This document shows positions 16,450 through 58,787 of a stretch of 64,000 nucleotides of DNA, piece after piece. The first letter of the stretch is position 1, and each line of letters opens with the position of its first letter. The stretch lies in the sequence record NZ_CP097382.1. One strand, given 5' to 3'. Position numbers and translations under genes: made by a program. Source of the DNA: a plasmid. The notes beneath the pieces are model-generated. The model searched no databases and was not told where the DNA came from. It worked only from the letters and a program-made list of their open reading frames with translations.

Positions 16450-17013
16450 ATGGAACGCAAAACACTGACGTTAAAACGTCCGGCGATAAAAAAAGACTCG
16501 GAAAGTACTGAACCGGTTATTCAACGTCGCCGTAAACAGGTGGTGGTTAATACACAGCGTAAACCCCATAAACCCGCCAAAACAGCGCCAGCTCAACCTA
16601 CTAAAAAAGTAACCCCTGCGAAAAAACAGAAAGCGGTGGTCATCCCATTAGAAAAAAAAGTTATTCCGCCAACGCCACCCAAAAAACATCTCCCCTTAGA
16701 GGACGCTATCGCGAATATCTCTGAATATTGGCCACAACTCTTTCCCAATGGACAACTTCGACCGATGGCGGTAGGCACACGTGAAGCCTTATTGGCGGAT
16801 AAAAAGGTGCGTGAATTGCCGATTTCATACAAAAAATTGAAACGCAGTCTGGCCGCTATTAGCCACAGTGTGAAATATCGCACGACGATTATGCCTGGTG
16901 CGGTACGCTATGATAAAGACGGTCAGCCGAATGGGACTGTCACGGAATCGGATGTCGCCGATACGTTAAAACGCATACAAAGACTCGCTAAACAACAATC
17001 ACGACCCGCATGA
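16450..17013 (+). CDS. finO: FinO/ProQ-family RNA chaperone (fertility inhibition protein FinO-like)
   Basis: The Lys-rich N-terminus MERKTLTLKRP… and …YWPQLFPNGQLRPMAVGTREALLADKKVRELPISYKKLKRSLAAISHSVKYRTTIMPGAVRYDKDGQP… parallel F FinO (…[24 protein letters not shown]…SHKKLRRALKAIT…AGACRYD…). Confidence 0.85.
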   Translation: MERKTLTLKRPAIKKDSESTEPVIQRRRKQVVVNTQRKPHKPAKTAPAQPTKKVTPAKKQKAVVIPLEKKVIPPTPPKKHLPLEDAIANISEYWPQLFPNGQLRPMAVGTREALLADKKVRELPISYKKLKRSLAAISHSVKYRTTIMPGAVRYDKDGQPNGTVTESDVADTLKRIQRLAKQQSRPA

Positions 17014-17458
17014 CAAAAGTAATAAATCCCCCGATTTCTATCCCCATGTTATCAGCCCATTTCAGCAGGGTGTTGGCAGCACAGGCAAACAACTGATTGA
17101 GTAACGGCCAGTTGAGATTAAAGGCAGGCCAGAGTTTATCAGGCATGGTGAAGGTGATGTGCTGCCATTCGCAGTCGGGCAGAATGTGTTGTTGCTCAGC
17201 TATCCACTGTTCGGTGGCTTTCATACCACAGGCACTGCAGCCTTTGCTTTTGCAGCTCTGGCAGAAATATTTTGAGTGAGTACAGTCGGGAGAGGCGCAG
17301 CAATAACGTCGGATCCCCATGGCACTGGTGCCGCAGGCGAGCATGCGCTCAATGACCAGTTTAGTCCATTCGGGAACAGTAGAGCCGTGTTTGATGAGTA
17401 GCCGGTTCCAGCCGTCATCAATCTGAAAGAGAAGTTTTGCTGGTCGGGGAATATACAT
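16988..17458 (-). pseudogene. IS91-family transposase, N-terminal 156-aa fragment (a divergent variant of the full copies)
   Basis: MYIPRPAKLLFQIDDGWNRL…CTHSKYFCQSCKSKGCSACG…DCEWQHITFTMP… is about 75% identical to the N-terminus of the 399-aa transposase at 17697. Its upstream end …GCAGGCGGCTATTGTTC (17537–17541) abuts IS91 copy 1, and the fragment overlaps the finO 3' end. Confidence 0.8.
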
Positions 17459-17541
17459 ACAGCGGATTATAACGGGAGACAGTGACTGAGGACAGCCATT
17501 GACTTGCAGAGTCTTAGCTCCGCCGCAGGCGGCTATTGTTC

Positions 17542-18983
17542 ATGGTTAGGAAACTGGATGAACAATTTAACGAGTCTATAAGGGTATGTTTGGTAGCAGA
17601 GTCTGTTAAAAGGTCTCTATCGTATTTAAACTTAACCATGATAACGCGTAATTGCGCTATTTTTAGCCAAAAACGGGGGTTTTAGATACACTGATCCTAG
17701 GCGGCTGTTTGCAGCCATCGTTTTTTGGCCATTTTATCCCGCCTTTCTGACAGTAAAGTGAGTGCGTGTATGCCTTTTTCCGCACTCATAAACCGCAGTC
17801 GGTTTCCACATAAAATACATTGATACGGATCTGTGTTTAAAAAACCTTTGATAAGGGCCGCAAAGCCGGGTTTTTCAGGTACGTTCGGATGTATCATGTC
17901 CAATGCGTCATACACTTTAGATAATAAACGCCCACGCTTGCGATTGGCTAAAAAACCATAATAGCGGATCATCTTAAAATGCCGCGCGGGGATATGACTG
18001 ACATAACGTCGTATCATTTCTTCTTGGGACAAGGTCTGTCGTCGATATTGTTGGCTATGGTGATCATAATAATGATGGATGACTGTGCCACCGCTGTAGT
18101 GTTTCAACTGAGACGCCGAGATAGGCGGACGTTTTAGGTATCGGCCCAGATATTTCACATTATGCCAAGCGCCTCGGGTCTTTTTGGCAAAATGGAGTTT
18201 CCAATAACGTTGAAACTGTGCATTGAGGTAACGACACCAGGTTGGGTAATCGCGAATATGCCCGAAGCCAGGCAATTTATTCGGTTGTAACTGAGCATAA
18301 TTGTCTCGAAGGAGCCGAATAACGGCGCTGCGCCAGACTTTCTCGACGTCTTTCTTTTTGAAAAAAATGGGTTTCCAGGTGTCATATTTTGTGAGACCGC
18401 CTCGGGTCACCGACAAATGAATATGCGGATGTTGATTAAGTTGGCGACCATAAGTATGCAAGGCACAAAAAATACCAATTTCGAGGCCATGACGTCTGGC
18501 GTGTTTGAGCATAGCTCGCGTGGCACAGCGAAATAGTTGATTAAGTAAGGTCCAGTTGTTGTTAAAAAAAGACCAAAGCAGGTGGGGCATCGTGAGGGTG
18601 ATGTGTTGCCATTCGCAGTCTGGCAAAATATGGCGCTGCTGTGCGATCCATTGTTCGGTGCCCTTGAGGCCACAGGCACTGCAGGCTTTGGATTTACAGG
18701 TTTGACAAAAGAATCGCGAATGCGTGCATTCAGGAGAAGAGCAGCAATAGCGGCGAACACCCATCGCGCAGGTGCTACAAGCGAGCATCTTTTCAACACA
18801 GAGGAGTTGCCATTCATCGACAGGGTTGTTATCAATGAAGCGGTTCCATCCGTCATCGTATTGAAATAGCAGTTTAGCGGGTCTGGGAATATACATAGAG
18901 CAGAGTATAAAAGACGAGAAGGGAGTTGCCTAGAAATAGAGCGGCTCAGCCGCGATGCTCACGCCACAGGCGTGCTTATGTTC
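17542..18983 (-). mobile_element. IS91-family (HUH Y2, rolling-circle) insertion sequence, copy 1
   Basis: Identical by eye (not recomputed) to 41496–42939. A GTTC tetranucleotide immediately flanks the transposase-downstream end (17538–17541), and the element ends …GTGCTTATGTTC at 18983. Confidence 0.85.
17697..18896 (-). CDS. tnpA: IS91-family transposase
   Basis: 399 aa with an N-terminal zinc-binding cluster (CxxC…CxxC), the HUH motif …HPHIHLSV… and C-terminal tyrosines …RYYGFLAN…. Confidence 0.9.
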   Translation of the reverse strand: MYIPRPAKLLFQYDDGWNRFIDNNPVDEWQLLCVEKMLACSTCAMGVRRYCCSSPECTHSRFFCQTCKSKACSACGLKGTEQWIAQQRHILPDCEWQHITLTMPHLLWSFFNNNWTLLNQLFRCATRAMLKHARRHGLEIGIFCALHTYGRQLNQHPHIHLSVTRGGLTKYDTWKPIFFKKKDVEKVWRSAVIRLLRDNYAQLQPNKLPGFGHIRDYPTWCRYLNAQFQRYWKLHFAKKTRGAWHNVKYLGRYLKRPPISASQLKHYSGGTVIHHYYDHHSQQYRRQTLSQEEMIRRYVSHIPARHFKMIRYYGFLANRKRGRLLSKVYDALDMIHPNVPEKPGFAALIKGFLNTDPYQCILCGNRLRFMSAEKGIHALTLLSERRDKMAKKRWLQTAA

Positions 18984-20404: not shown

Positions 20405-20956
20405 GTTTATTATTACTTCCAAAAAAATAAAAATGATTACCTATTATTAATTGTCCATAAATGATTGGCTGTTTTTTTAATTAACACAATTATAAAAAGT
20501 AAATAATTAAAAGTAAAACTCCTTTAATTGAACCGTATATTAAGTATCAAATTGTTACAACTTTTACTAAATAGTGATAAGACTTTAAATATCAATGAAT
20601 TATAAAAAAACATCAGTTTAATTGTTTTTTATCCACTCGAAAATGGATAAAAAAAAATCAATATTTTAATCTAAAAATAAACTAAAAATAGATATTTAAA
20701 GTTGAAATTTACGAAAATTAATAATTTGACTTAAATATTTGCAAAAAAAACAAAAAAGAAACACAATACGCATTTACTGGGTTTTTTATTTAATGAAAAA
20801 AGCTTAATAAAATAATAATAATCATTGTTTTTCAAATAATTACCTTCAAACTCTATTGGCGCGTTAATGGTTGGGTAAATGGATGAATTGTTTAACGGGT
20901 CATGTATTCAATCCGGTGTGTATCCTGTAATATAGGTAATTTACCGGAAAATAGTC

Positions 20957-21223
20957 ATGACTAAAGTCGATGTAAGGTGCGCATTTTGTCTACAAACTTC
21001 CTCAGTGAAAAAACATGGATTAGGGAGTACTGGCAACCAACATTATCGTTGCCAAGACTGCAGCCGAAGCTTCCAACTCGATTATGAATATCGAGCCTGC
21101 CAACCCGGAACTCAAGATAAAATTATCGACCTAACGATGAATAATGCAGGTATTCGTGATACTGTCAGGGCTCTTCATATCAGCATTAATGCTGTTGTTC
21201 GTACTTTAAAAACTCTCGCCTAA
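20957..21223 (+). CDS. insA: IS1 InsA-like protein
   Basis: 88 aa whose zinc-finger N-terminus and HTH C-terminus resemble IS1 InsA. Confidence 0.8.
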   Translation: MTKVDVRCAFCLQTSSVKKHGLGSTGNQHYRCQDCSRSFQLDYEYRACQPGTQDKIIDLTMNNAGIRDTVRALHISINAVVRTLKTLA

Positions 21224-21279
21224 TCAGGTAACTTCTTTACCCCTTGATAATTTGCACATTGAACTCCTTTGCAAGGTTG

Positions 21280-25001: not shown

Positions 25002-27662
25002 ATGATGGCCCTAGGTTTTATTCATATGCCGTTGTTACGGGTAAGCCGTCCTCGGTTGATGGGACTACTTATTGCTTTATCCCTAAGTTGTAATAGCTAC
25101 GCTGAGCAGATTGAATTTAATACGGATATTTTAGATGTCAATGACCGCGCAAATATTAATTTAGCTCAGTTTTCACGTCCAGGCTTTTTAATGCCAGGAG
25201 AATATCGTTTTTCTATTTTTATAAATAAGCATCAACTACCTGAACAAACCGTATTTTATTATGTACCCGATGGTCAGCCAGATGAGAGCGTGGCCTGTTT
25301 AAGCCCTACATTAGTTGAGCAACTCGCGCTTAAACCTGATTTATTGCCAACCCTAAAATGGTGGCATGATGGGCAGTGTTTATCACTAGAAAGCTTACCG
25401 GGCACTGAAGTTAAAGGGGATTTAGCTGCTTCCGCTTTATATGTCAGTTTACCACAAGCATATTTGGAATATACAGCCGAAAACTGGGATCCACCTGCTC
25501 GTTGGGAAGATGGATTACCTGGCGCTCTTTTTGATTATAACCTCAATGCACAGGTTGGTCAGCAAACTCGAGGCGGACAACGAACAAATGTCAGTACCAG
25601 CGGTAATGGTGTTGCGGGTGTTAACTTAGGTGTATGGCGTATGCGTGCTGATTGGCAAATGCGTTTAGACAAACAGCAAGGACAAGATACTTCTAGTTCA
25701 TTAGATTGGACTCGATACTATGTCTATCGTGCAATTAAATCTCTCGGGGCAAAACTCACTTTAGGTGAAGATTATTTAGCCTCAGATATTTTTGACAGTT
25801 TTCGATTTACGGGACTCAGTCTGATCACCGACATCAATATGTTACCACCTAATTTACGGGGATATGCCCCCGAAATAACAGGTGTAGCTAAAAGTAATGC
25901 TACCGTTATTGTGAGTCAGCAAGGCCGTATTATTTATCAAACACAAGTTGCCGCTGGCCCTTTTCGTATTCAAGACTTAAATGATGCACTATCCGGTGAG
26001 ATTAATGTTGAAGTTAAAGAACAAGATGGCTCAATTCAAACGTTTACGGTGAATACAGCCAGTGTTCCTTATCTCACTCGCCCAGGCCAAGTACGTTATA
26101 AGCTTGCCGCTGGACGTCCAACTGATTGGCGCCACCATGTGAGCGGTGAAACGTTTGCCAGCAGCGAGTTTTCGTGGGGAGTAAATAACGGTTGGTCATT
26201 ATATGGTGGCGGCGTTGCAGCGGAGAATTACACTTCCGTTGCGGTTGGTATCGGTCGAGATCTGATGACGTTTGGCGCGCTGTCTTTTGATATCACCCAT
26301 GCGCGTTCACGGTTAAAAGGGTTAACTGAAGTCGGCGATAAAACGTATCACGGTAATTCATATCGTTTGAGCTATTCAAAACGATTTGATGCCTACAATA
26401 GCCAAGTGACATTTGCGGGATATCGTTTTGCTGAGCAAGGTTTTATGAGTATGTCTGAGTACTTAAATGCCCAGTCTACGGGTGTCCGCCAGTATAGCAG
26501 TAAGGAAATGTATACGGTTTCCTATAACCAACAATTTCCGGAGTTGGGGCTCAGTGCTTATATAAATTATTACCATCAAACCTACTGGGATCAGCCTGAT
26601 AATGACCGTTATAGTCTGTCTTTAGCACGTTATTTTGATATCGGGAAATGGAAAAATTTAAGTGTTAACTTGACGGCTTATCGAAATCGTTATCGGCAGA
26701 CTAATGATGATGGGGCCTACCTTTCCTTTTCATTGCCTTGGGGGGAGAGTGGCTCGCTTAGCATGAACAGCAGTTGGGATGAGAGTGATAATTCTCAACG
26801 AGTCAGTTATTACGATCGATTAGATGAACGTACTAATTACCAATTAAGTACCGGATGGTCTCGTTCTGGTGGGTTAGTGAGTGGTTATTACACACATCAA
26901 GCTGATTTGGCTCAAATCAATGCAAATGCCACTTATCAGCAAGATAGATATCGTTCTGCTGGCTTATCACTTCAAGGTGGTTTTACGGCGATTAAGCAAG
27001 GTGTGGTGATGCATCGTGGTAATCAGCTTGGGGGGACTCGAATTTTTGTTGATACGGATGGTGTTCCGAATATCCCATTACGAGGTTATGGCTCAACTAT
27101 TCGAACAAACTATTTTGGTCAGGCTGTATTAACAGATGTGAACAGTTATTACCGTAATCAGGTCAGTGTCGATTTAAATACATTACCTGAAGATGCTCAG
27201 GTATCACAATCGATTAAGCAAGGTACCTTAACAGAAGGTGCTATTGGTTACCGCCAGTTTGATGTTGTCGCTGGACACAGTGCAATGGCCTTATTGCGTT
27301 TATCTGATAATAGGTTCCCCCCATTTGGAGCACAAGTTTTCAATATAAAAGGCCAACAAGTGGGAATGGTGGGGGATGATGGGAGTACGTATTTAACGGG
27401 GCTCAACCCTAACGATAAATTACAAGTTCGTTGGGATGACAAAGCACAATGTGAAATCACCTTACCTAAAATATTACCGAAGAGCGACACGTTGTTAACG
27501 AATTGGTTATTACCGTGCGATGCGACTGGCATCTTACCCATAGAGCAGACACAGATAGTTGTTGAATCGAATACAGCCAGTTTACCGTCGCCTCATTCAT
27601 TAATTTCTGAGGCATCAGATAAACCGGGTTTGGCCAGCTCAGCGAGCTGGTTAAGAAAATAA
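25002..27662 (+). CDS. Fimbrial usher, MrpC-like
   Basis: 886 aa with a signal peptide and usher domains. The C-terminal …GDDGSTYLTGLNPNDKLQVRWDDKAQCEITLP… is present. Confidence 0.9.
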   Translation: MMALGFIHMPLLRVSRPRLMGLLIALSLSCNSYAEQIEFNTDILDVNDRANINLAQFSRPGFLMPGEYRFSIFINKHQLPEQTVFYYVPDGQPDESVACLSPTLVEQLALKPDLLPTLKWWHDGQCLSLESLPGTEVKGDLAASALYVSLPQAYLEYTAENWDPPARWEDGLPGALFDYNLNAQVGQQTRGGQRTNVSTSGNGVAGVNLGVWRMRADWQMRLDKQQGQDTSSSLDWTRYYVYRAIKSLGAKLTLGEDYLASDIFDSFRFTGLSLITDINMLPPNLRGYAPEITGVAKSNATVIVSQQGRIIYQTQVAAGPFRIQDLNDALSGEINVEVKEQDGSIQTFTVNTASVPYLTRPGQVRYKLAAGRPTDWRHHVSGETFASSEFSWGVNNGWSLYGGGVAAENYTSVAVGIGRDLMTFGALSFDITHARSRLKGLTEVGDKTYHGNSYRLSYSKRFDAYNSQVTFAGYRFAEQGFMSMSEYLNAQSTGVRQYSSKEMYTVSYNQQFPELGLSAYINYYHQTYWDQPDNDRYSLSLARYFDIGKWKNLSVNLTAYRNRYRQTNDDGAYLSFSLPWGESGSLSMNSSWDESDNSQRVSYYDRLDERTNYQLSTGWSRSGGLVSGYYTHQADLAQINANATYQQDRYRSAGLSLQGGFTAIKQGVVMHRGNQLGGTRIFVDTDGVPNIPLRGYGSTIRTNYFGQAVLTDVNSYYRNQVSVDLNTLPEDAQVSQSIKQGTLTEGAIGYRQFDVVAGHSAMALLRLSDNRFPPFGAQVFNIKGQQVGMVGDDGSTYLTGLNPNDKLQVRWDDKAQCEITLPKILPKSDTLLTNWLLPCDATGILPIEQTQIVVESNTASLPSPHSLISEASDKPGLASSASWLRK

Positions 27663-41491: not shown

Positions 41492-41495
41492 TTGT

Positions 41496-42939
41496 TCATG
41501 GTTAGGAAACTGGATGAACAATTTAACGAGTCTATAAGGGTATGTTTGGTAGCAGAGTCTGTTAAAAGGTCTCTATCGTATTTAAACTTAACCATGATAA
41601 CGCGTAATTGCGCTATTTTTAGCCAAAAACGGGGGTTTTAGATACACTGATCCTAGGCGGCTGTTTGCAGCCATCGTTTTTTGGCCATTTTATCCCGCCT
41701 TTCTGACAGTAAAGTGAGTGCGTGTATGCCTTTTTCCGCACTCATAAACCGCAGTCGGTTTCCACATAAAATACATTGATACGGATCTGTGTTTAAAAAA
41801 CCTTTGATAAGGGCCGCAAAGCCGGGTTTTTCAGGTACGTTCGGATGTATCATGTCCAATGCGTCATACACTTTAGATAATAAACGCCCACGCTTGCGAT
41901 TGGCTAAAAAACCATAATAGCGGATCATCTTAAAATGCCGCGCGGGGATATGACTGACATAACGTCGTATCATTTCTTCTTGGGACAAGGTCTGTCGTCG
42001 ATATTGTTGGCTATGGTGATCATAATAATGATGGATGACTGTGCCACCGCTGTAGTGTTTCAACTGAGACGCCGAGATAGGCGGACGTTTTAGGTATCGG
42101 CCCAGATATTTCACATTATGCCAAGCGCCTCGGGTCTTTTTGGCAAAATGGAGTTTCCAATAACGTTGAAACTGTGCATTGAGGTAACGACACCAGGTTG
42201 GGTAATCGCGAATATGCCCGAAGCCAGGCAATTTATTCGGTTGTAACTGAGCATAATTGTCTCGAAGGAGCCGAATAACGGCGCTGCGCCAGACTTTCTC
42301 GACGTCTTTCTTTTTGAAAAAAATGGGTTTCCAGGTGTCATATTTTGTGAGACCGCCTCGGGTCACCGACAAATGAATATGCGGATGTTGATTAAGTTGG
42401 CGACCATAAGTATGCAAGGCACAAAAAATACCAATTTCGAGGCCATGACGTCTGGCGTGTTTGAGCATAGCTCGCGTGGCACAGCGAAATAGTTGATTAA
42501 GTAAGGTCCAGTTGTTGTTAAAAAAAGACCAAAGCAGGTGGGGCATCGTGAGGGTGATGTGTTGCCATTCGCAGTCTGGCAAAATATGGCGCTGCTGTGC
42601 GATCCATTGTTCGGTGCCCTTGAGGCCACAGGCACTGCAGGCTTTGGATTTACAGGTTTGACAAAAGAATCGCGAATGCGTGCATTCAGGAGAAGAGCAG
42701 CAATAGCGGCGAACACCCATCGCGCAGGTGCTACAAGCGAGCATCTTTTCAACACAGAGGAGTTGCCATTCATCGACAGGGTTGTTATCAATGAAGCGGT
42801 TCCATCCGTCATCGTATTGAAATAGCAGTTTAGCGGGTCTGGGAATATACATAGAGCAGAGTATAAAAGACGAGAAGGGAGTTGCCTAGAAATAGAGCGG
42901 CTCAGCCGCGATGCTCACGCCACAGGCGTGCTTATGTTC
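41496..42939 (-). mobile_element. IS91-family insertion sequence, copy 2 (identical to copy 1)
   Basis: Identical by eye (not recomputed) to 17542–18983, with a flanking GTTC at 41492–41495. Confidence 0.85.
41653..42852 (-). CDS. tnpA: IS91-family transposase
   Basis: 399 aa identical to the product of 17697–18896. Confidence 0.9.
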   Translation of the reverse strand: MYIPRPAKLLFQYDDGWNRFIDNNPVDEWQLLCVEKMLACSTCAMGVRRYCCSSPECTHSRFFCQTCKSKACSACGLKGTEQWIAQQRHILPDCEWQHITLTMPHLLWSFFNNNWTLLNQLFRCATRAMLKHARRHGLEIGIFCALHTYGRQLNQHPHIHLSVTRGGLTKYDTWKPIFFKKKDVEKVWRSAVIRLLRDNYAQLQPNKLPGFGHIRDYPTWCRYLNAQFQRYWKLHFAKKTRGAWHNVKYLGRYLKRPPISASQLKHYSGGTVIHHYYDHHSQQYRRQTLSQEEMIRRYVSHIPARHFKMIRYYGFLANRKRGRLLSKVYDALDMIHPNVPEKPGFAALIKGFLNTDPYQCILCGNRLRFMSAEKGIHALTLLSERRDKMAKKRWLQTAA

Positions 42940-49439: not shown

Positions 49440-50045
49440 TTTTGCGTTTCGGGGCAACGGCTTCATGCTGGCATTGAGCCAGGCTTAAGCCGAATGCCGG
49501 ATTGACCCCATTTACACACAGTTGGCGCAGGTTCCCCGTACACTTCCGTTCACGCGCCTGTTTGGGGCGCGTTCACTGGCTCGCCAAATGTGGAAAATGG
49601 GGACAACCGGCTTGAAAGGTCAACCGCTGCGCCTTTTTCCGTTTTCAACGTGGCGCAAAGGGCAGGGGTGCAGCTCCCTGCGGGACCGCCCCTGGTTCAC
49701 CGCTTAGCTACGCTAAGCGTTAATGGCGACTTGCCGTTCGCTTCTCTCGCTGCAAGTCGGGTGCTGTCATTTTCATCACCTGTGTGATTAATCTTTCATC
49801 GAGCACCTCCGCTTGGCCTAAAACATAGCCTCATCTCGTCATACAGCAAGCGTAAAGTGCACTCCACCAAAATTCTTGTCGCTGCGCTTTCCAACAATTT
49901 TGTCTCCGCCCTTGCTTCCTTCCTCGTCTCGGCTATGTACGGCCTTTGCAGCGGAGGAACTCAACGAAAGAAATCATTAACACGGTGGAGGATTCAAAAA
50001 TGTCATCACATCAAAACCTTGCAGCTCCAGAATCTAACGAAAGAA
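49440..50045 (+). repeat. Leading-region structured repeat, copy A (ssi/Frpo-like single-strand promoter candidate), extending into the first about 16 codons of the downstream ORF
   Basis: About 75–85% identical to 56385–56835 over roughly 450 bp. It contains nested inverted repeats (CAGGGG…TCCC-NNN-GGGA…CCCCTG and GCTTAGC-tac-GCTAAGC) and the block …AAACATAGCCTCA.CTCGTCAT.CAGCAAGCGTAAAGTGCACTCCA.CAAAATTCTTGTCGCTGCGCTTTCCAACAATTTTG.CTCCGCCCTTGCTTCCTTCCTC…. Confidence 0.7.
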
Positions 50046-50290
50046 GGGTTAAAAACCCACTGACGGATAGTCAGAAAGCCGATTTATTGCATTACATTGC
50101 GCCATTAACACGGTTATTGGATTTATTCGAGGGGGATATCTCACCTGAGTTGTACGACGAAGAAATCACGCTGCACAGTGATGCATACGATTCCAACAGT
50201 ATTTTTATGAAAGACGGTTATCCGATTGGCTTTAGTGACAATTTAAACAACATGTTCTATCTGCGTCCTGAACTGATTCAGGCATCTTAG
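50000..50290 (+). CDS. Small hypothetical protein (96 aa) whose start is supplied by repeat copy A
   Basis: MSSHQNLAAPESNERR…, whose N-terminus matches that of KlcA (MTQQQSLAAQESNER…) only because both lie inside the repeat. The remainder is unrelated. AGGATTCAAAAATG provides an RBS. Confidence 0.4.
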   Translation: MSSHQNLAAPESNERRVKNPLTDSQKADLLHYIAPLTRLLDLFEGDISPELYDEEITLHSDAYDSNSIFMKDGYPIGFSDNLNNMFYLRPELIQAS

Positions 50291-50353
50291 GTGCTAAGAG
50301 AGCCTTGTCACTCTCTTAGCAAAGACACATTAAAAACAATAGAGGTATCAATT

Positions 50354-52357
50354 ATGTCTACATTAGAAACTATCATTAACCCAAAACAACGTAAAGCAAA
50401 AAAAGGCACAAAATCCGCACAAACCGACGCGATTTATCAGGCATTGGACAGTATGGAAGCGCATGTATTGCCGTTATCGGCATTGGTACAGAGTGAACTC
50501 AATGTCCGTAAACGTCCAATCGACGAAAAAGCCTTGTCCGAACTGGCAGACAGTATTCAAGCGGTCGGGGTATTACAAAACTTGGTGGTTTACCCGATGG
50601 ACAATGACGTCTACGGGGTTGCTGCGGGTCAACGTCGTTTACTGGCGTTACAACAATTGGTGACAAAAGGGCATTTAGCGTCGAGTTTCCCTGTGCCTGT
50701 CAAAGTGGTTTCAGAGTCCGATGCGCTGATTGTTTCCCTGACGGAAAATAGCCAACGTGAAGCTATGCACCCAGCCGACCAACTTCATGCTTTTATCGAG
50801 CTACAAAAAACAGGCAAAAATGCGGCTGAAATCGGTGACTTATTAGGGGTCAGCACTCATCACGTTAAAAAATGTCTGCGTTTAGCAAACATGGCGCCTG
50901 AGCTGTTAGCCGAATTGGATGCGGATAATATTACCCTAGACCAACTGCAAGCGTTAGCCGGAACCCCTGACCATGACCGTCAAGTGATGGTGTGGAACAA
51001 TGCAATGGGTTGGAAAAAAGAGCCACCTTACTTACGTGAAGCGATTGAAGAAACCAAAACCCCCGTCGAAAATAATCGACTGGTGAAGTTTGTGGGGTTG
51101 GATGCCTACGAGCAAGCAGGGGGAACCCTTGAAATTGACCTATTTACCGAAGCAGGATTTATTGAAAACGCCCCGCTATTAGAAAAAATGGCACTAGATA
51201 AACTCAGTGCGTGTGCGGAACTGTTAGCGGATATTGAGGGTTGGCAGTTCGGTACTGCCCGTTTAGAGCGTCCGAGCTTTTACGGTAATGGTGGGGAAAC
51301 CTTGTCTCTCAGTCATGCGCCCGAGGCGGTCATTCCCCCTGAATTTGCGGATTTACTGGCTGAATTGCGTGCTCGTGAAGCGGATTTACGGGAACAAGCA
51401 TTAAATGCAGAGGAATATCATGAACAAATCGACCTTTGGCAAGCCGTGAATGATTGCGAAAATCAAATCGAGGGCATTGAAAGTCGGACTAAAAATCAAG
51501 CGTGGACAGCCGATGGAAAAGCCACAAAAGGCGTTGTTGTCTACCTTGACCGTGATGGAGAACCGTGTGTCATCCGTGGCGTCATTGACTTAGCACAGCA
51601 AGAGTCACCGTGCAGTGAAGCGGAAAGCGAAACGGAAAGTAGTGAAAGTGAGCAATCAACGACTCAAGTTGAGACGGTTTCTACCTACAGCGCAGCCTTG
51701 TGCAAAAGTCTTTCTTCGGAGCGCACATTAGCGGTTCAAGCGGCATTAACACAACATCCAAACGTGGCACTGGCGATTTTGGTTCATGATGCATGCATTC
51801 AAGTGTTTGGTTCACCGTATGCCAAAACTGCATTTAACATTAAGTTTTCGCTTTCTCAGGAAGAGTTACTCAAAAATGCCCCGACCGCCCAAGACAGTGA
51901 AGCATTGCAATTACTCAATACGCAATTTGAGTCGTGGTCAGCGCGTCTCCCTGACGCATGGCAAGCCGATTTTTCTTGGTTGTTGTCATGGGAGCAAGCG
52001 GATTTAGTCGCGTTACTGGCGTTTTGCTCTGCGCAAACGTTGAGTGAAGTCAATCATTATGCTCCGCACGATAACACGTTAGCCGAAGCCCTGCGCCCAA
52101 TTGAACAGGCAATTGCCTTTGATTTTCGTCAGTGGTGGCAGCCAACAAAAGCCAATTTCTTTGGGCGTATCAGTAAAGACCAAATCAGCGATTGTTTAGT
52201 GGATGCAGAGGCAGCAGATAAAGCCCTTGAAGCTGTCAAAATGAAGAAAGGGGATGCTGCGGAGTTGGCTGAAAATACCCTCAAAGATACCCATTGGTTG
52301 CCGAGCTGTTTTCTGAATGTAAACGCTGACACTCACCACACCGATAACGCGCAATAA
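50354..52357 (+). CDS. ParB-like nuclease-domain protein (large, about 668 aa; leading-region ParB homolog)
   Basis: An N-terminal ParB/Srx domain (…LSALVQSELNVRKRPIDEKALSELADSIQAVGVLQNLVVYP…GQRRLLALQQL…) plus an HTH (…GKNAAEIGDLLGVSTHHVKKCLRLA…) and a long acidic C-terminal region. The ATG at 50354 is preceded by AGAGGT. Confidence 0.75.
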   Translation: MSTLETIINPKQRKAKKGTKSAQTDAIYQALDSMEAHVLPLSALVQSELNVRKRPIDEKALSELADSIQAVGVLQNLVVYPMDNDVYGVAAGQRRLLALQQLVTKGHLASSFPVPVKVVSESDALIVSLTENSQREAMHPADQLHAFIELQKTGKNAAEIGDLLGVSTHHVKKCLRLANMAPELLAELDADNITLDQLQALAGTPDHDRQVMVWNNAMGWKKEPPYLREAIEETKTPVENNRLVKFVGLDAYEQAGGTLEIDLFTEAGFIENAPLLEKMALDKLSACAELLADIEGWQFGTARLERPSFYGNGGETLSLSHAPEAVIPPEFADLLAELRAREADLREQALNAEEYHEQIDLWQAVNDCENQIEGIESRTKNQAWTADGKATKGVVVYLDRDGEPCVIRGVIDLAQQESPCSEAESETESSESEQSTTQVETVSTYSAALCKSLSSERTLAVQAALTQHPNVALAILVHDACIQVFGSPYAKTAFNIKFSLSQEELLKNAPTAQDSEALQLLNTQFESWSARLPDAWQADFSWLLSWEQADLVALLAFCSAQTLSEVNHYAPHDNTLAEALRPIEQAIAFDFRQWWQPTKANFFGRISKDQISDCLVDAEAADKALEAVKMKKGDAAELAENTLKDTHWLPSCFLNVNADTHHTDNAQ

Positions 52358-52398
52358 TCAGACTGGAGACACTGCCCGAAAGGGCAGTGTGAATAATC

Positions 52399-52998
52399 AT
52401 GACAACGATTCCAAACCATTTAGCCCTTGTGCCGTTTAATGACCGTCAATATGCCGCAGCAAAAGCCATCCTTTTTGTCGAAGATAAAATGCAAAAAGGG
52501 CAATACCAAAAAAGCTATCCCTATGCGAGTGCGTTAATTCGATTTTTTACAGGGAATAAAGGGGCAATAACCGCAAAAGATTTGCACTCTACGTTGGTGT
52601 TATCTTTTGATGATAAACGTGAAATGCCGTCAAAAAATCGCTATCTTTCGGCTCTAGATACGTTTATTCAGTCCCGTGGTTATATTTGTCCATTGCCGTT
52701 ATGCGATCATCATGTGCGTGATTTTTTTCCTGAGCTGGATTACCGCGACCGTGAACGGCAGGGGCGAAAAATTCATTCTCAAGTACAGGTAGTGAGCCGT
52801 GCCCGACAAAAAGCCCAAATTAAAGCGCAGCAACAGTATCAAAATCGATTAGCCCAAGCCGAAATTGAGTTAGCCTTTATTACCCCCAGTGAGTTTAAAT
52901 CGTGGTACAACCGGTTTAATCATGATGGGATTGAAGAGTATGATTTGATTGAATTGCTTGTAAACTGGACGACGCGATTTAACAATTTAAACTTGTGA
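52399..52998 (+). CDS. Hypothetical protein (199 aa)
   Basis: Intact ORF co-directional with its neighbours. No recognised domain. Confidence 0.45.
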   Translation: MTTIPNHLALVPFNDRQYAAAKAILFVEDKMQKGQYQKSYPYASALIRFFTGNKGAITAKDLHSTLVLSFDDKREMPSKNRYLSALDTFIQSRGYICPLPLCDHHVRDFFPELDYRDRERQGRKIHSQVQVVSRARQKAQIKAQQQYQNRLAQAEIELAFITPSEFKSWYNRFNHDGIEEYDLIELLVNWTTRFNNLNL

Positions 52999-53128
52999 AA
53001 ATACCTTGATTTTGCCCCGTTGTGGTCGGCTCTCTTGGATTTCAATGAGGATATCGATACCCGATCATACGGTGAGCAATTACTGGATAATTATACCATT
53101 CCTAATAAATTAATCGGTAAAAAGGGCG

Positions 53129-53401
53129 TTGACCATGAATGAATGGAATGTGGTTTTACTCGAAACTGAAGACAGTTTGGTGCTAATGATGCGCGGTGAG
53201 CACACAAAAGAAACGGTCATTAACTCAGCAATTGCCGCGAATGAAATTTCACAGAGTGATCGAGAAACGTGGTTAGCCTGTGAAGATATCAATGTGGGTT
53301 ATTACAAGGCAGTGCCTAGAGAAGGGCATGTGACCTATTATTACCCCTCGAGTCAGGACGTTAAAGGCGCATTTTTGGCAACCAGTCTTGTGCTATTTTA
53401 A
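53129..53401 (+). CDS. Hypothetical small acidic protein (90 aa)
   Basis: Intact ORF. No recognised domain. Confidence 0.4.
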   Translation: MTMNEWNVVLLETEDSLVLMMRGEHTKETVINSAIAANEISQSDRETWLACEDINVGYYKAVPREGHVTYYYPSSQDVKGAFLATSLVLF

Positions 53402-53412
53402 GGATGAGATAA

Positions 53413-53799
53413 GTGAAAAATATCGAAAATGATGTTACTGAAATCACCGAACAGCAGCGGTTTGAGTTTGCCTATCAGGATTTATGCAAAATAAAACACG
53501 GCGTAAGAACACGCTATTTCGCTGAAAAAATGGGACTTTTCGTTTGGTTTTTGACGTTAACTGTCGGGTCTGTATGGCTGATCTTGGCGAATTTACCGAT
53601 TGTGGGCTTAGTTGTTCCCGTAGTACTGGTCTATTGGTGCTTGAGTATCACTCTTTTCATTAAATTAAAGTTATTTCTCATTTTAAATAGTGAATGGAAA
53701 CTTAATGCATTTATTACATCAATATACCCCAATGAATGTCGAATTATACCGCGCATTGCAAGAAAATGTTCGGTATACACCCGAACATTTTCTTGTTGA
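53413..53799 (+). CDS. Hypothetical membrane protein (128 aa, 2 predicted TM helices)
   Basis: Hydrophobic stretches …FVWFLTLTVGSVWLILANLPIVGLVVPVVLVYWCLSITLFI…. A second ORF (53690–53899) overlaps the 3' end in another frame. Confidence 0.35.
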   Translation: MKNIENDVTEITEQQRFEFAYQDLCKIKHGVRTRYFAEKMGLFVWFLTLTVGSVWLILANLPIVGLVVPVVLVYWCLSITLFIKLKLFLILNSEWKLNAFITSIYPNECRIIPRIARKCSVYTRTFSC

Positions 53800-54194
53800 G
53801 CTTAAGATCTGGTTAGCAAAAGAAAGTCAGTATTTCGGTGTAAAACCAGTCTATACGGTTAAAAAGAGATTGAGTTTTACTGAGCGAGTGATTAAGTAAG
53901 TTACAGCTTTAATTTTAATAACAATGAGTTAAGAAATTTTTATCATAAACATAAAATAACCCCTTATGGGTTCCTACGGCAGCTCGACGTTATCGAGCTG
54001 TCGCCTACACTCCAACTCCATTCGTTTTAGGAATGGGTTTCCGCAGAGCCGCAAGCGTCTCTGTCCTTCGGATAGCAAGCGAAACCTAACTGCACGGCAT
54101 TTCGTGCTTCGCACGGCCGTTAAAGACGCCACGCGTTGCGTGTCGGCCGATTGCCTCCTCACCCGACGGTTATTTTCTTACTATCAGCCCATTC

Positions 54195-54340
54195 GCTAGG
54201 GCTTAAACATAGCCTCAACTCGTCATCCAGCAAGCGTAAAGTGCACTCCAGCAAAATTCTTGTCGCTGCGCTTTCCAACAATTTTGCTTCCGCCCTTGCT
54301 TCCTTCCTCGTCTCAGCTATGCACGCCCTTGCCGCGACTG
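54195..54340 (+). repeat. Leading-region structured repeat, partial copy B
   Basis: It shares the conserved core …GGGCTTAAACATAGCCTCAACTCGTCATCCAGCAAGCGTAAAGTGCACTCCAGCAAAATTCTTGTCGCTGCGCTTTCCAACAATTTTGCTTCCGCCCTTGCTTCCTTCCTCGTCTCAGCTATG… with copies A and C and diverges on both sides. Confidence 0.7.
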
Positions 54341-54462
54341 AACTGACAGTAAGATGAATTAACACTTTCAAAGAGAACTACGAGGCCATCGGTGAACGTC
54401 AACACCGCCACGCCAAAACCTCCAGAAAGATGAGTTAAAAGCCAAAAACAAGGAGTATCAAC

Positions 54463-54714
54463 ATGAATTATCAAATTTTTATTGCGGAAACCCATAAGAA
54501 AAATGTGACAGGGCAAACGGATGACGTTTATCACTTCAATTCCATTGCGGAATTCTTCACTTTTCTGAAAAAAACGAAATTCGCGGAAAAAATGAACATG
54601 AATTACCAATATGCCTTAACCGATGGAACAAAAAACACCGATTTAACTTACTGCGAAATTGAAAACGCCAACCACCTTAAACCGTTTAAAAAACAGGTTC
54701 GCCAATACCGTTAA
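54463..54714 (+). CDS. Hypothetical protein (83 aa)
   Basis: It is preceded by GGAG. No recognised domain. Confidence 0.4.
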   Translation: MNYQIFIAETHKKNVTGQTDDVYHFNSIAEFFTFLKKTKFAEKMNMNYQYALTDGTKNTDLTYCEIENANHLKPFKKQVRQYR

Positions 54715-54809
54715 AGCGACCTATTGAATAGCGCGAAATCGTAACGCGCTATTCAATATCGAGCCAGTTCGATATTGACCCACCACTAAATCATAAAAGG
54801 AGAAAGAGT

Positions 54810-55148
54810 ATGTATCACGCATTAGAGCAGTACGAAACAGACAGTTACTCAGAAACCCAAAGCGCGGAATTGATGTATTGGATAGGACGTGAACAAGCGG
54901 CTAAAACTGCCCCGACAGAGATTACCTTAATGCAATTTATGGATGCGTTATCCGTTATGCCCCCGCTGGATTGGCAAGGCAATAACAATACGGAGTCCTT
55001 TAAATTGCAAGAGATGGTTTTAGGGAACGTGACTGACATTTTTGTCAAAGAGGACGAACGTTATTTTACGTTTCGGGATGTATTAACGTTATCCCATGCG
55101 CAAATTATTTCGCGTGTGCGTTGTGCTGGATTGCTGGCACAACAATGA
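54810..55148 (+). CDS. Hypothetical acidic protein (112 aa)
   Basis: It is preceded by AAAGGAG. No recognised domain. Confidence 0.45.
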   Translation: MYHALEQYETDSYSETQSAELMYWIGREQAAKTAPTEITLMQFMDALSVMPPLDWQGNNNTESFKLQEMVLGNVTDIFVKEDERYFTFRDVLTLSHAQIISRVRCAGLLAQQ

Positions 55149-55237
55149 AAAAAGCAGGCTTGCGCCTGCTTAATCCGTGCCTTGAATGACTTTAGCGAGG
55201 AACTCAAGGCATCAACTCACTCAAAGGAGTAGCTCCT

Positions 55238-55480
55238 ATGAACTCAACAATCATGGCATACGCTGCCAACCCTGTAAAGCCCCAAATGCCCGCCCTGTCA
55301 AAACGTCGGGTCGTGCGTCACGATATGACAATAAGTGAAATTGAGCCGTGTTATCGGTCAATGGCGCGGCATATCGACAAACAACTTAAACGAAAACAGC
55401 CCGTTCGCATCCCTGCAATGAATAACCAGTGTTTGGGGCAACTTTTGCGTTGTTTAGAACTGCGTAAATCGTGGATTTAA
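55238..55480 (+). CDS. Hypothetical protein (80 aa)
   Basis: It is preceded by AAAGGAG and is basic. Confidence 0.35.
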   Translation: MNSTIMAYAANPVKPQMPALSKRRVVRHDMTISEIEPCYRSMARHIDKQLKRKQPVRIPAMNNQCLGQLLRCLELRKSWI

Positions 55481-55531
55481 GTTAAATCACTGCCCCTGTT
55501 TTTGTTTCAGGGGCAGTTCTGGAGCGTCGAT

Positions 55532-56341
55532 ATGTCACAATTGAGTTTTTTTGATGTGGATTTAAGCCAACCCGCGAAAGGAGCCAGCCCTATTATCTCA
55601 GGTTTGCCCAGTAAGATAGACACAAAGACAGACAAAATAGTCGAGAAAGCAAACCTAACCACGGTTAACGCCAAATCAAAGCGCGATTTTCACAAGGAAT
55701 TTATTCAATTATTTAATCAAACGGCACGTTATCACAGTCGCTTAGACGTATTTCGAGATTTTATTCATGTTGCCGCGATTTCATTAGAAAACAGCGTAAA
55801 ACAGTGTCCTGAGTTGGAACAAACTTACTTTAACGTGATTGCGCGTTATGAAAGAGCCGATTTAGATGTATTCGCCAAATTAATGGCAATTTGTGTTAAT
55901 GCCTTAGACAGTCAAGCGACTGATTTTTTAGGGGAACTCTTTATGTCATTAGAACTTGGCGAAGGGGCATGGGGGCAGTTTTTCACCCCATTTCATATCA
56001 GCCAGCTAATGGCAAATTTTATCATTGGTGATTGCAGCAAGATAATTGAAAAAAATGGCTATATCAGTGTGTGCGAGCCTACGTGCGGGGCGGGCGGAAT
56101 GGTGATTGCCTGTGCAAATTCTGTTTTACAACAAGGCTATAACTCACAAACGCAAATGATTGCGGTGTGTACGGATATTGATGAAGTTGCCGCCCGAATG
56201 TGTTACGTCCAACTGGCATTATTGGGGATACCTGCGATTGTGAATATCGGCAACAGCTTGACCTTGGAAGTTCGCCAAACACTGTATACCCCGATGTTAA
56301 TGTTAAACTCATTCCGCTTTAAATCCTTTCTTACAGCCTAA
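55532..56341 (+). CDS. Orphan N6-adenine DNA methyltransferase-like protein (N6_Mtase fold, possibly truncated/atypical)
   Basis: …WGQFFTPFHISQLMANFII… (the FxTP target-recognition lead-in of HsdM/gamma-class MTases) and motif I …VCEPTCGAGGMVIAC…. No NPPF/Y motif IV is visible before the ORF ends, where repeat copy C begins. There is no adjacent restriction or specificity gene. Confidence 0.55.
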   Translation: MSQLSFFDVDLSQPAKGASPIISGLPSKIDTKTDKIVEKANLTTVNAKSKRDFHKEFIQLFNQTARYHSRLDVFRDFIHVAAISLENSVKQCPELEQTYFNVIARYERADLDVFAKLMAICVNALDSQATDFLGELFMSLELGEGAWGQFFTPFHISQLMANFIIGDCSKIIEKNGYISVCEPTCGAGGMVIACANSVLQQGYNSQTQMIAVCTDIDEVAARMCYVQLALLGIPAIVNIGNSLTLEVRQTLYTPMLMLNSFRFKSFLTA

Positions 56342-56384
56342 TTCACGTTATTTTCAAGGGGATTTATTCCCCTATTTGCGCATC

Positions 56385-56835
56385 GGCTTAATCCTGGCAT
56401 CGAGCCAGGCTCAATCCGACAAAGACAACCCCTGCGCCTTTTAACGCTGACGCGTGGCGCAAAGGACAGGGGTGCAAGCTCCCTAAGGGAGCCGCCCCTG
56501 ATAAACCGCTTAACGTTGTTAAGCTCAAAGGACGCCTTGCGGTTCGATTCTCTCGCCGCAAGTCGGGTTGCGTCATTTTCAGCCACTGTGTTGTTAATCT
56601 TTCGCCAAGCCCCTCCGCTCGGGCTTAAACATAGACTCAATTCGTCATCCAGCAAGCGTAAAGTGCACTCCAGCAAAATTCTTGTCGCTGCGCTTTCCAA
56701 CAATTTTGCCTCCGCCCTTGCTTCCTTCCTCATTTCGTCTATGTACGCCCTTTGCAGCGAAGGAACTCAACGAAAGAAATCATTAACCCAAAGGAGACAC
56801 TAAAATGACTCAACAACAAAGCCTTGCAGCTCAAG
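56385..56835 (+). repeat. Leading-region structured repeat, copy C (ssi/Frpo-like), extending into the klcA start
   Basis: It is homologous to copy A and includes compensatory stem changes (GCTTAAC-gttg-GTTAAGC versus GCTTAGC-tac-GCTAAGC in copy A). It ends in …AAGGAGACACTAAAATGACTCAACAACAAAGCCTTGCAGCTCAAGAATCTAACGAAAGAA. Confidence 0.7.
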
Positions 56836-57284
56836 AATCTAACGAAAGAAATGGAAAAGACGAAACTGTAATCACTGCTATTGAGGTGAAGAACGAGCGA
56901 GCCCGTTTAAAATTTTTACCTTCAAAATTAGGGCGGTATTGCATTGCATTTGAAAATGCAATCTATAACTGGATGACTCGGAATGCTGTAGCCTATAACG
57001 GCGGGTATTGGGATTTTTATACGTTGTCGAATAACGGTTTTTATTTGCAACCGACAAAAGGCTATATGCTCACCTCACCAAACGGCTTTATGGACGATGT
57101 TAGCGCCCAAGAAGCGGGGATCATTGTGACCTTAATGATGTTAAGTCATTTCTCATTCGTCACTGATGAAAAAGGGCACACAGAAGAATGTGAGCGTATT
57201 TCTGCTTATTTTCATCAACTACGGGATTTTATTTTCACATTACCCCCTGAATCACAAACAAAGATATTGAATGCCATTGATTAA
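56805..57284 (+). CDS. klcA: ArdB/KlcA-family anti-restriction protein
   Basis: …RLKFLPSKLGRYCIAFENAIYNWMTRNAVAYNGGYWDFYTLSNNGFYLQP…QEAGIIVTLMMLSHF…YFHQLRDFIFTLPPESQTKILNAID aligns with RK2 KlcA (…RLDFLPTYFG…YNGAYWHYYALSDGGFYMAP…AAGIVATLFALGQL…YHFLRGFAAGHPEAAAIYRAID). Confidence 0.85.
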   Translation: MTQQQSLAAQESNERNGKDETVITAIEVKNERARLKFLPSKLGRYCIAFENAIYNWMTRNAVAYNGGYWDFYTLSNNGFYLQPTKGYMLTSPNGFMDDVSAQEAGIIVTLMMLSHFSFVTDEKGHTEECERISAYFHQLRDFIFTLPPESQTKILNAID

Positions 57285-58328: not shown

Positions 58329-58787
58329 TTAGTTATTTTTTTTAATGTTAAGATAAATGTGATAGACCTCAAGCGCATATTGATTTCTTTTTTGTTCTTG
58401 AGCCTCGGATTTTTTCAACCCTGCATTATAAGCCCCTACGCCTTTCCAGATATCCCCTTGTATACGAATAAATTTAGCGAGATAAAACGCGCCCGTATAA
58501 ATATTCATACACGGATCTAACCTTAATTGATTTTCGGTAATGCCATGCTGTGCTAATTCGTTAAAGTTTTGCGAATGAATTTGCATTAAGCCAATAGCGT
58601 ATCGCGTCGGTGAAGCTTGGTTAATCGCATTTGGTTGGAATGAGCTTTCACGAAAGGCAACTGCGCGTAATAAATCAGGGTCAATTTGATAATCATTTCC
58701 TGCTTTATCATAGCAATCAAACGAAAATGAAAAAGGCGAAAAAAATAACGCAATGAGAATACAGATCATTCGCATATAAAACCCCAT
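58329..58787 (-). CDS. Lytic transglycosylase (SLT domain), conjugation-associated (F orf169/geneX, P19-like)
   Basis: 152 aa with a signal peptide and the SLT catalytic region …AVAFRESSFQPNAINQASPTRYAIGLMQIHSQN…YNAG…. It lies adjacent to the oriT-like region, as in F-like plasmids. Confidence 0.8.
   Translation of the reverse strand: MGFYMRMICILIALFFSPFSFSFDCYDKAGNDYQIDPDLLRAVAFRESSFQPNAINQASPTRYAIGLMQIHSQNFNELAQHGITENQLRLDPCMNIYTGAFYLAKFIRIQGDIWKGVGAYNAGLKKSEAQEQKRNQYALEVYHIYLNIKKNN

Follow-up and report, generated by a model that had tools for sequence, protein, structure and literature searches.

Two unrelated genes that begin with the same codons

The stretch analyzed here (the window) comprises 64,000 nucleotides (nt) of a plasmid, sequence record NZ_CP097382.1, and it raises a simple question, namely why two of its genes, whose protein bodies are unrelated, begin with nearly the same codons. 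These genes are orf96, encoding a protein of 96 amino acids (aa), and klcA, encoding an antirestriction protein. An earlier note on this DNA had proposed that a repeat supplies both genes with a portable ribosome-binding site (RBS), a start codon and about 16 first codons, and had read this as a modular expression cassette. We consider it likely that the repeats are Frpo-type promoter hairpins, acting on single-stranded DNA (ssDNA), whose downstream arm carries the Shine-Dalgarno sequence (SD), the ATG and the leader codons. The two genes are as follows.

50000 to 50290, plus strand: orf96, 96 aa, leader and body; the ParB-like gene and psiA come next.
56805 to 57284, plus strand: klcA, antirestriction protein of 159 aa; leader of 15-16 residues and a complete KlcA fold.

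The N-termini read MSSHQNLAAPESNER in orf96 and MTQQQSLAAQESNER in KlcA. At the DNA level, the 29-mer CCTTGCAGCTC(C/A)AGAATCTAACGAAAGAA occurs at 50017-50045 and 56822-56850, the two sites being one mismatch apart; no third site exists in the window at up to three mismatches, and chance would yield none. The two repeat ends quoted in the earlier note are present as written. In-register identity between the two copies is 10/15 over the ATG and codons 2-5 and 29/33 over codons 6-16, with a spacer after the SD that is about 60% identical, versus only 15/60 (25%) at nt +48 to +107 and 57/180 at nt +108 to +287. Thus, the shared N-terminus is real. The bodies are indeed unrelated, as proposed: without the leader, the two proteins gave a BLASTP E-value of 6.2 and an hhalign probability of 0.6%. 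Both proteins have an NNxFYLxP stretch (orf96 50180-50275, …SDNLNNMFYLRP…; KlcA 56990-57060, …LSNNGFYLQP…). A distant relationship through this stretch was considered and rejected on the same two values, the match being due to chance.

The similarity would have been an artefact if KlcA started downstream of the repeat, a point that the earlier note had itself raised. Three observations point to ATG 56805 as the start. First, KlcA matches Pfam PF03230, the KlcA/ArdB family (E = 4.9e-19), and the solved structure of the 142-aa KlcA in PDB entry 2kmg (E = 1.7e-17), whose residues 5-132 align with its residues 20-147; the leader is therefore a 15-residue extension outside the KlcA fold. The KlcA of plasmid F aligns to the KlcA of the window in the same way. 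Second, among eight orthologues, codons 17-27 of klcA vary mostly at third positions (GTA/GTC/GTT, ATC/ATA, ACT/ACG, GCT/GCA), which indicates that these codons are translated. Third, ATG 56805 is the only in-frame start 5′ of these codons, since a TAA shuts the frame right before the SD. The sole in-frame candidate further downstream, a GTG at codon 28, was rejected, as it lacks a usable SD and its use would drop conserved residues. As for orf96, its diversity reaches 0.153 at third codon positions vs. 0.063 and 0.073 at first and second positions, which indicates a real coding sequence. Its homologues are found in Providencia only, and every full-length member carries the leader.

The repeats fold as long hairpins of the transferred strand

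Repeat finding and alignment revealed one element in three copies in the window, A, B and C (two to four copies per related plasmid). Copies A (~49616-50045) and C (~56430-56850) are alike across ~430 nt. In copy B a central part of 160 nt (54186-54345) is 88-91% identical to A and C, and homology is weaker on either side. On gene content and order, the window is the leading region of an F-type conjugative plasmid of Providencia: megablast located the leading block, 88-92% identical, in 58 plasmids of Providencia whose F-type transfer regions are complete, and its synteny equals that of plasmid F and of annotated Providencia relatives. By this synteny with F, the origin of transfer (oriT) should lie between the SLT transglycosylase gene and traM, and the minus strand would be both the transferred strand and the template for the genes of the block. 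The parts of the three copies are listed below.

49616 to 49733, plus strand: upstream flank of A, ~82% identical to the flank of C, with short G+C-rich hairpins in the folds.
49734 to 50045, minus strand: hairpin A.
49734 to 49756, minus strand: L1 of A, outermost upstream arm, pairing with the leader codons (R1) in the transferred strand according to the minimum free energy (MFE) fold and duplex energy.
49766 to 49773, minus strand: GTCATTTT of A, upstream arm, partner of AAAATG (the start codon and the preceding A run).
49849 to 49844 and 49827 to 49822, minus strand: predicted promoter boxes of A on the non-template arm, -35-like TTGCTG and -10-like TATGTT with a 16-nt spacer, read from the sequence; both lie in paired stem.
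49868 to 49902, minus strand: apex of A, CAAAATTCTTGTCGCTGCGCTTTCCAACAATTTTG, identical in A, B and C.
49912 to 49939, plus strand: template-arm copy of the predicted boxes of A, TTGCTT, 16 nt, TATGTA; the last -10 base faces a T-T mismatch.
49943 to 49972, plus strand: R2 of A, first 30 nt of the predicted 5′ untranslated region; pairs with L2 in the hairpin.
~49946 to 49950, plus strand: predicted transcription start of A, placed from the sequence.
49987 to 49992 and 50000 to 50002, plus strand: SD GGAGGA and ATG of orf96, inside the downstream arm of hairpin A.
50017 to 50045, plus strand: R1 of A, leader codons 6/7-16 (NLAAPESNER), outermost downstream arm; similarity to C stops at its 3′ end.
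54120 to 54433, minus strand: hairpin B.
54186 to 54345: core of B, with -10 complement AACATA 54206-54211, -35 complement CAGCAA 54228-54233 and apex 54252-54286.
54296 to 54301 and 54318 to 54323: template arm of B, TTGCTT and TATGCA.
56430 to 56539, plus strand: upstream flank of C, homologous to the flank of A.
56540 to 56850, minus strand: hairpin C.
Upstream arm of C: L1 56540-56562; GTCATTTT 56572-56579; -10 complement 56628-56633; -35 complement 56650-56655; apex 56674-56708.
Downstream arm of C: TTGCTT 56718-56723; TATGTA 56740-56745; R2 56748-56778; SD AAGGAG 56791-56796; ATG 56805; R1 56822-56850.

In each copy, the minus strand forms a single long, imperfect hairpin of ~310 nt (z = -6.1 for C, -5.5 for A and -4.7 for B). 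Of the 73 pairs in the consensus structure of 20 Providencia copies, 16 show compensatory changes. Once the outermost helices are included, pairing extends to 96.4% of cells vs. 39-43% when the partners are slid by 1-3 columns, and two-sided pair changes number 18 vs. 1-5 in these slid controls (none of 500 shuffles reaches 18), a comparison that favours a structure derived from the same sequences. The minus strand is more stable than the plus strand in all 20 copies, by 10.9 kcal/mol (MFE) on average, as expected if the transferred strand is what folds. This two-strand comparison replaced a count of G-T vs. A-C pairs (144 vs. 13), the excess of which is biased by the structure prediction.

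A profile made from the 20 Providencia copies matched plasmid F at Frpo1 (E = 1.3e-9) and Frpo2 (E = 2.6e-7), over profile positions 12-331 of 346 (nhmmer). A scan for double-strand sigma-70 consensus promoters found none at any of the repeats, and its overall count of sites did not exceed the chance expectation. Judged by homology and fold, the repeats are homologues of the class 1 ssDNA promoters of the Frpo/ssi type. We infer from this that they have promoter activity on ssDNA, with transcription from the predicted start and translation from the embedded ATG. The structured promoter of the earlier note would thus be an ssDNA promoter of this type, and the RBS, the ATG and the leader would be the downstream arm of the hairpin itself rather than an addition placed after the promoter.

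In A and C, the hairpin is preceded by the common flank of ~110-120 nt with its short G+C-rich stem-loops, and the Frpo repeats of F also extend ~250 nt upstream of their hairpin. This flank might serve as a priming site or as a terminator of the operon before it.

The leader codons lie in the downstream arm of the stem

The pairing of the leader was followed helix by helix. R1 and L1 form 17 of 22 possible pairs, in one register common to the A and C copies, and their duplex reaches -17.2 kcal/mol in A vs. -10.1 for shuffled sequences, and -16.1 vs. -9.3 in C. Altogether, 14 of 17 copies form a duplex stronger than that of composition-matched shuffles (z from -2 to -6.3). The start codon is itself within a helix, AAAATG:CATTTT in A and C and GGATG:CATCC in the B-type copies, where 97.5% of cells are paired with three two-sided changes. 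The R2:L2 helix is 98% paired with 7 two-sided pair changes. R1 appears as a direct repeat of R2 (22/29 bases), a duplication also found in F and in the Klebsiella-type elements, and the segment of F homologous to R1 forms the base of the predicted Frpo hairpin. At codon 10, natural variants that replace TCC or TCA by GAG or AAA regain pairing, AAA only through a G-T wobble on the minus strand. The RBS, ATG and leader codons are thus the downstream arm of the hairpin, which explains both their conservation at the nucleotide level and the point at which the shared block ends.

The pattern of variation in the leader agrees with this. Diversity in R1 is 0.07-0.09, with third positions no higher than first and second ones, while third positions downstream reach 0.15-0.28. 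The Yersinia copy has lost one base and gained another, so that NVNTAAP is read as TSRPPLP, and the DNA is still conserved. In two loci from Klebsiella and Enterobacter (L021 and L023; such numbers are our handles for plasmids and loci), an extra base causes the end of R1 to be read RKMG instead of ERW. It appears, therefore, that the DNA structure and not the peptide is conserved in the leader. Shuffles fold as well as the predicted mRNA leaders do (z = +0.07, +1.40 and -0.48), and an explanation by RNA structure was dropped. A search of the whole window against Rfam yielded no match, and the leader is not followed by a terminator-like site on the plus strand.

Copy B and the movement of the arm between genes

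Copy B shows the same arm in front of a gene to which it is not fused.

54392 to 54433, plus strand: leader open reading frame (ORF) of copy B, GTG start, 13 codons VNVNTATPKPPER, TGA 54431-54433 straight after R1; GAGG at 54382-54385, 6 nt upstream.
54450 to 54714, plus strand: orf83, with its own SD AAGGAG 54450-54455 and ATG 54463, 30 nt past the stop of the leader ORF.

This leader ORF is a degenerate homologue of the A and C leaders. Stand-alone leaders of 16 codons that start with ATG, M(P/S)SENVKTAAPESSER followed by a stop, occur in L010, L011 and L013, ahead of two different genes. The modular cassette suggested earlier is therefore supported, the arm being joined in frame to the orf96-parB-psiA series and to klcA, and forming a mini-ORF before orf83.

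Comparison of related Providencia plasmids revealed that the leader types have been swapped: an A-type arm with its leader precedes klcA in L010-L012, and a C-like leader precedes orf96 in P0011. In these plasmids the shared stretch stops anywhere from codon 16 to codon 19. In L007 (NZ_CP086258.1, 9414-9960), a decayed fourth copy has lost precisely the R2-R1 segment, including SD and ATG, and this deletion is direct evidence of recombination between R2 and R1. The remnant of orf96 behind this decayed copy is truncated by an insertion. The swaps, the variable end points and the L007 deletion indicate that recombination between copies moves the arm as a unit.

Distribution of the leader beyond Providencia

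The B-type downstream arm matched 917 plasmid records of PLSDB (blastn), mainly from Klebsiella (345), Enterobacter (312), Citrobacter (72) and Providencia (47), and also from Raoultella, Escherichia, Serratia, Pantoea, Yersinia and Rahnella. An annotated coding sequence overlies the match in 57 of 60 sampled rows. An SD and an ATG occupy the homologous site in every one of the ten loci inspected, nine from PLSDB and one on an E. coli plasmid from a separate search. The leader was found in homologous hairpins of eight other genera (Klebsiella, Citrobacter, Enterobacter, Lelliottia, Serratia, Yersinia, Rahnella and Escherichia), with the consensus M-(N/H/K)-T-(Q/R/N/I)-N-V-(N-V)-K-T-A-A-x-E-S-x-x-R among the inspected loci; MHTRNVNVKTAA is a form carried by Klebsiella or Enterobacter IncFII plasmids. 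In the two loci that were folded, the ATG lies in a perfect stem of at least 14 base pairs. All nine PLSDB loci match the Providencia profile (nhmmer, E = 1e-14 to 1e-36), and the element reaches 56-64 nt into the ORF at seven of them. The earlier note had the block end about 48 nt into an ORF, and this holds for A and C. In some Providencia relatives it reaches codon 19.

At least eight unrelated protein bodies, including those of the window, are fused to the leader.

Body 1: orf96 and a distant relative in L022.
Body 2: KlcA.
Body 3: 124-aa protein (L015, L020).
Body 4: family of 70-80 aa (L016, L017, P0036, P0040).
Body 5: family of 130-140 aa (L018, L019).
Body 6: YgeA-like (L021).
Body 7: DUF905-like (L023).
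Body 8: family of 72 aa (P0025, P0046, P0053).

Two of the fused families were added by a protein search with concatenated leaders (3 and 31 matches), which favours short proteins and is not a census. Among complete E. coli genomes the leader type is rare (39/5426). A scan of genome contigs with the hairpin-core pattern found none, and the only copy in a species representative, L014, differs in the core; a scan of metagenome contigs with the leader pattern found none either.

Two observations were made on annotated proteins. A leader-fused protein of 132 aa, in Lelliottia (L019, 870-1268) and in E. coli NZ_CP101706.1, is annotated as "ammonia monooxygenase" and has no Pfam match; this label is almost certainly a propagated misannotation. 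On the E. coli plasmid pEc4097 (L024, 560-760), a KlcA-like gene annotated as frameshifted bears the leader MHTINVKTATRESAEQ, and the apex of its hairpin is unlike class 1. The leader arm may thus combine with other hairpin cores.

Comparison with known ssDNA promoters

In F and IncI1 plasmids, leading-region genes are expressed early and transiently from ssDNA promoters, and a plasmid normally has several of them (PMC9849209, PMC11541004, PMC12672017). The closest relatives are Frpo1 and Frpo2 of F (Masai and Arai, 1997; Couturier et al., 2023, PMC9849209). As in the window, they are dispersed repeats of the leading region, forming a long imperfect hairpin of the transferred strand, and the genes point to oriT. 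In F the hairpin rebuilds a -35/-10 pair, for which the boxes read from the window are candidate counterparts. Homology is nearly full-length and includes the R2/R1 duplication and the basal stem. However, in F a gap of 22 nt separates the end of the repeat from the ATG of ssb or ygeA, and both genes have an SD of their own beyond the hairpin; the segment homologous to the leader is untranslated, its frame having no start codon. The F element is also G+C-rich, with a repeat unit of ~530 nt.

In F (L009), the downstream arms of Frpo1 and Frpo2 (10530-10616 and 15920-16006), which are 100% identical, hold an ORF of 28 codons, MVNTGGNKRQVPAKRQNRGSRNSKDDGG and a stop, in a frame different from that of the Providencia leader. 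This ORF was considered as the same leader ORF and rejected, since it lies in another frame and the leader frame has no start. The YgeA protein of F starts with MSTRNIHVNTA, which is leader-like and suggests, as far as sequence resemblance goes, a partial duplication of the SD-ATG-leader segment in F.

The ssi1-3 elements of ColIb-P9, R64 and pESBL (class 1, with starts mapped by 5′ rapid amplification of cDNA ends; Bates et al., 1999; PMC12672017) likewise place several Frpo-like hairpins before different leading operons, and ssi-driven operons are induced early in transconjugants (PMC12672017). In R64, in contrast to the window, the apex region alone matches Frpo, and ssb and the next ORF start past the hairpin; no homologue of the leader was found in the downstream arms of R64.

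The class 2 ssDNA promoter (Frpo3/ssp2) of klcA and ardA in pESBL and F (PMC12672017; bioRxiv 2025.04.03.647016; 10.64898/2026.01.09.698686) brings about early expression of klcA from a hairpin of the transferred strand, as proposed for the window, and the order methylase, hairpin, klcA, SLT is common to both. It belongs to a different sequence class, whereas klcA of the window has a class 1 (Frpo-like) copy and is fused to a class 1 leader.

A last comparison is with leader peptides and upstream ORFs. Copy B, L010, L011 and L013 resemble them by an ORF of 13-16 codons with an SD in the 5′ leader, ending 30 nt (B) or ~25 nt (L013) before the main start. Unlike in those systems, no alternative RNA structure or terminator is evident here, most copies are fused, and the conserved structure is in the DNA. 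Of the features of a regulatory leader, a short separate ORF with its own RBS was found, among the copies of the window, in B only, and control through RNA structures or a terminator was not found.

The element type (Frpo/ssi class 1) is thus known, and what is new is its coding downstream arm, absent from both experimentally studied prototypes. The literature that we searched makes no mention of a translated leader inside Frpo elements.

Proposed explanation and alternatives

We propose that the minus strand enters the recipient first, from oriT, and that each repeat would then fold into its imperfect hairpin of ~310 nt. The stem would rebuild a -35/-10 pair (TTGCTG, 16 nt, TATGTT on the non-template arm), allowing the host RNA polymerase to transcribe the plus-strand genes before the complementary strand is made. 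The downstream arm would provide the SD ~40 nt and the ATG ~53 nt after the predicted transcription start, followed by 16 codons. In the hairpin, the ATG would pair with CAT of the upstream arm, and codons 6-16 (R1) with the outermost upstream segment (L1). The arm would be constrained as DNA structure, and it would be moved or homogenised together with the promoter by recombination between copies. Because the arm travels with the promoter, any gene joined in frame would receive the same N-terminus, as orf96 and klcA do; where the frame is closed by TGA, as in copy B, the leader would stay a mini-ORF and the next gene would use an RBS of its own. The leader peptide itself is most likely a by-product.

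Several points weigh against this explanation. For the recombinant copies before klcA in L010-L012, shuffles pair as well as L1 and R1 do, which indicates that the outermost helix is not strictly required, and the MFE fold of C places L1 in a local hairpin, unpaired with R1. The predicted -35 matches the consensus at 3 of 6 positions and the -10 at 4 of 6, and the start site is only predicted. The slid-partner control is, as said, a comparison tilted towards the structure. Finally, SD and ATG are conserved in every inspected element other than those of F and IncI1, even in those with a mini-ORF, and this hints that initiation at the embedded site is itself selected, a fact that a by-product would leave unexplained.

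This last point leads to the best of the alternatives, which we nevertheless regard as unlikely: the SD-ATG-leader segment would be selected for translation and would load ribosomes at the 5′ end of the transcript, the gene fusions being secondary. Such loading could bring translational coupling, protection from Rho or RNase, or removal of the RNA from the single-stranded template. An SD and a start codon are present in all 13 inspected elements other than those of F and IncI1, from nine genera including Providencia. Copy B, which lacks the ATG, still has its GTG with GAGG 6 nt upstream, and in three plasmids the TGA after R1 is exactly where the stand-alone 16-codon leaders stop, ahead of two different genes. 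Leader types differ by indels whose lengths are multiples of 3 or 6 nt, and an unstructured mRNA leader favours initiation. However, Frpo1/2 of F and ssi of R64 work without a leader (PMC9849209), and the SD-like GGAGG and the ATG are also paired positions of the stem, so that structure alone could keep both.

A stricter form of the same idea, to which we give equally little weight, is that the embedded SD-ATG-leader is a functional requirement for expression from a single-stranded template. The arms of the hairpin would re-anneal behind the polymerase, so that only the RNA copied from the stem would be pushed off the template. An RBS and a start codon in the stem would then be offered on a free 5′ end, and the translating ribosome would strip the remaining transcript from the ssDNA. 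Such stripping would decide whether the transcript becomes an mRNA or an RNA-DNA hybrid that primes complementary-strand synthesis. If this were true, the shared N-terminus would be the footprint of ribosome stripping across hundreds of enterobacterial plasmids, with F and IncI1 using a variant solution.

It is quite improbable that the repeats are a plain segmental duplication of a promoter and a gene 5′ end, kept alike by gene conversion, with a leader that has no structural role. Recombination between copies is clear from the leader swaps, the R2/R1 deletion and the end points at codons 16-19. Yet the conservation is a mosaic (29/33 in R1 vs. 10/15 in the ATG and codons 2-5 and ~60% in the SD spacer), R1 is homologous to the arms of F and of the Klebsiella-type elements across genera, and the complementarity of R1 and L1 shows covariation in a strand-biased fold.

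Slightly less probable again is a functional peptide tag, in which the 15-16 shared residues would serve transfer through the channel, turnover or the binding of a partner. The motif AA-x-ES-x-ER does recur on many leading-region proteins, and some leading-region proteins of an F-like plasmid are reported as translocated (PMC8406263). Against a tag stand the lack of a third-position excess in R1, the occurrence of P, Q, R or K at codon 10, the compensated frameshift of Yersinia and the changed 3′-end frame of L021 and L023; moreover, the same DNA is untranslated in F and cut by a stop in copy B, and the KlcA fold is complete without the leader.

That R1 and R2 are DNA or RNA sites for a protein or small RNA (ParB-like, PsiA, ProQ/FinO, CsrA) is highly unlikely, for although the R2/R1 direct repeat is kept in Providencia, Klebsiella-type elements and F, with both units in the first 100 nt of the predicted transcript, the pairing with the upstream arm and its covariation already explain the conservation, Rfam gave no match and the partners named are only candidates.

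Coming back to an ssDNA promoter with a coding arm, its interest lies in the genes concerned. Establishment genes, among them those for anti-restriction and anti-SOS functions, are activated by ssDNA promoters within minutes of entry into a new host, and what is known of these promoters comes nearly all from F and IncI1, whose genes start after the hairpin. In the copies inspected here, promoter and translation start form one unit, with the first 16-20 codons in the arm. In-frame fusion can put this unit before any gene, and the same DNA would be constrained both as structure and as coding sequence. The leader could serve as a marker for early-expressed genes, flagging at least eight families as likely candidates for establishment or anti-defence functions, and it would account for odd N-terminal extensions and misannotations. 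As a compact part of natural origin, the unit might also be used to express a payload from ssDNA as it enters.

Other features of the window and of related plasmids

Ahead of the leading-region block, the window carries two chaperone-usher clusters, two IS91-family transposase genes, parAB and umuDC. This block and what follows are organized as below.

Leading-region block, all on the plus strand: orf96, ParB-like gene, psiA, small ORFs, N6-methylase, klcA, LPD29/LPD30 protein.
50354 to 52357: ParB-like gene, downstream of orf96.
52399 to 52998: PsiA gene, downstream of orf96.
58329 to 58787, minus strand: SLT transglycosylase, after the leading block.
Beyond it: traM, LuxR-type regulator (traJ), traY, traA, traL, traE, traK.

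MOB-suite tags 55 of the 58 matching Providencia plasmids of PLSDB (e.g., L006, L008) as "non-mobilizable" despite a full F-type transfer region and a TraI relaxase, which looks like a typing gap for this plasmid family. In L008 (NZ_CP082354.1), a reverse transcriptase/maturase of a group II intron lies on the opposite strand at 16792-18144, between the copy B operon and the methylase gene.

The two IS91-family transposase genes of the window (17697-18896 and 41653-42852) have identical Pfam scores (Y2_Tnp and a zinc-binding domain), and their 3′ ends are overlapped by 300 nt that are 100% identical (17536-17835 and 41492-41791); a third segment, 73-81% identical, lies at 17079-17472. The two genes flank ~24 kb that include one chaperone-usher cluster. 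Outer-membrane usher genes at 149-2524 and 25002-27662 indicate that the plasmid carries two chaperone-usher fimbrial clusters, and related segments are present at 4250-4620 and 20893-21260.

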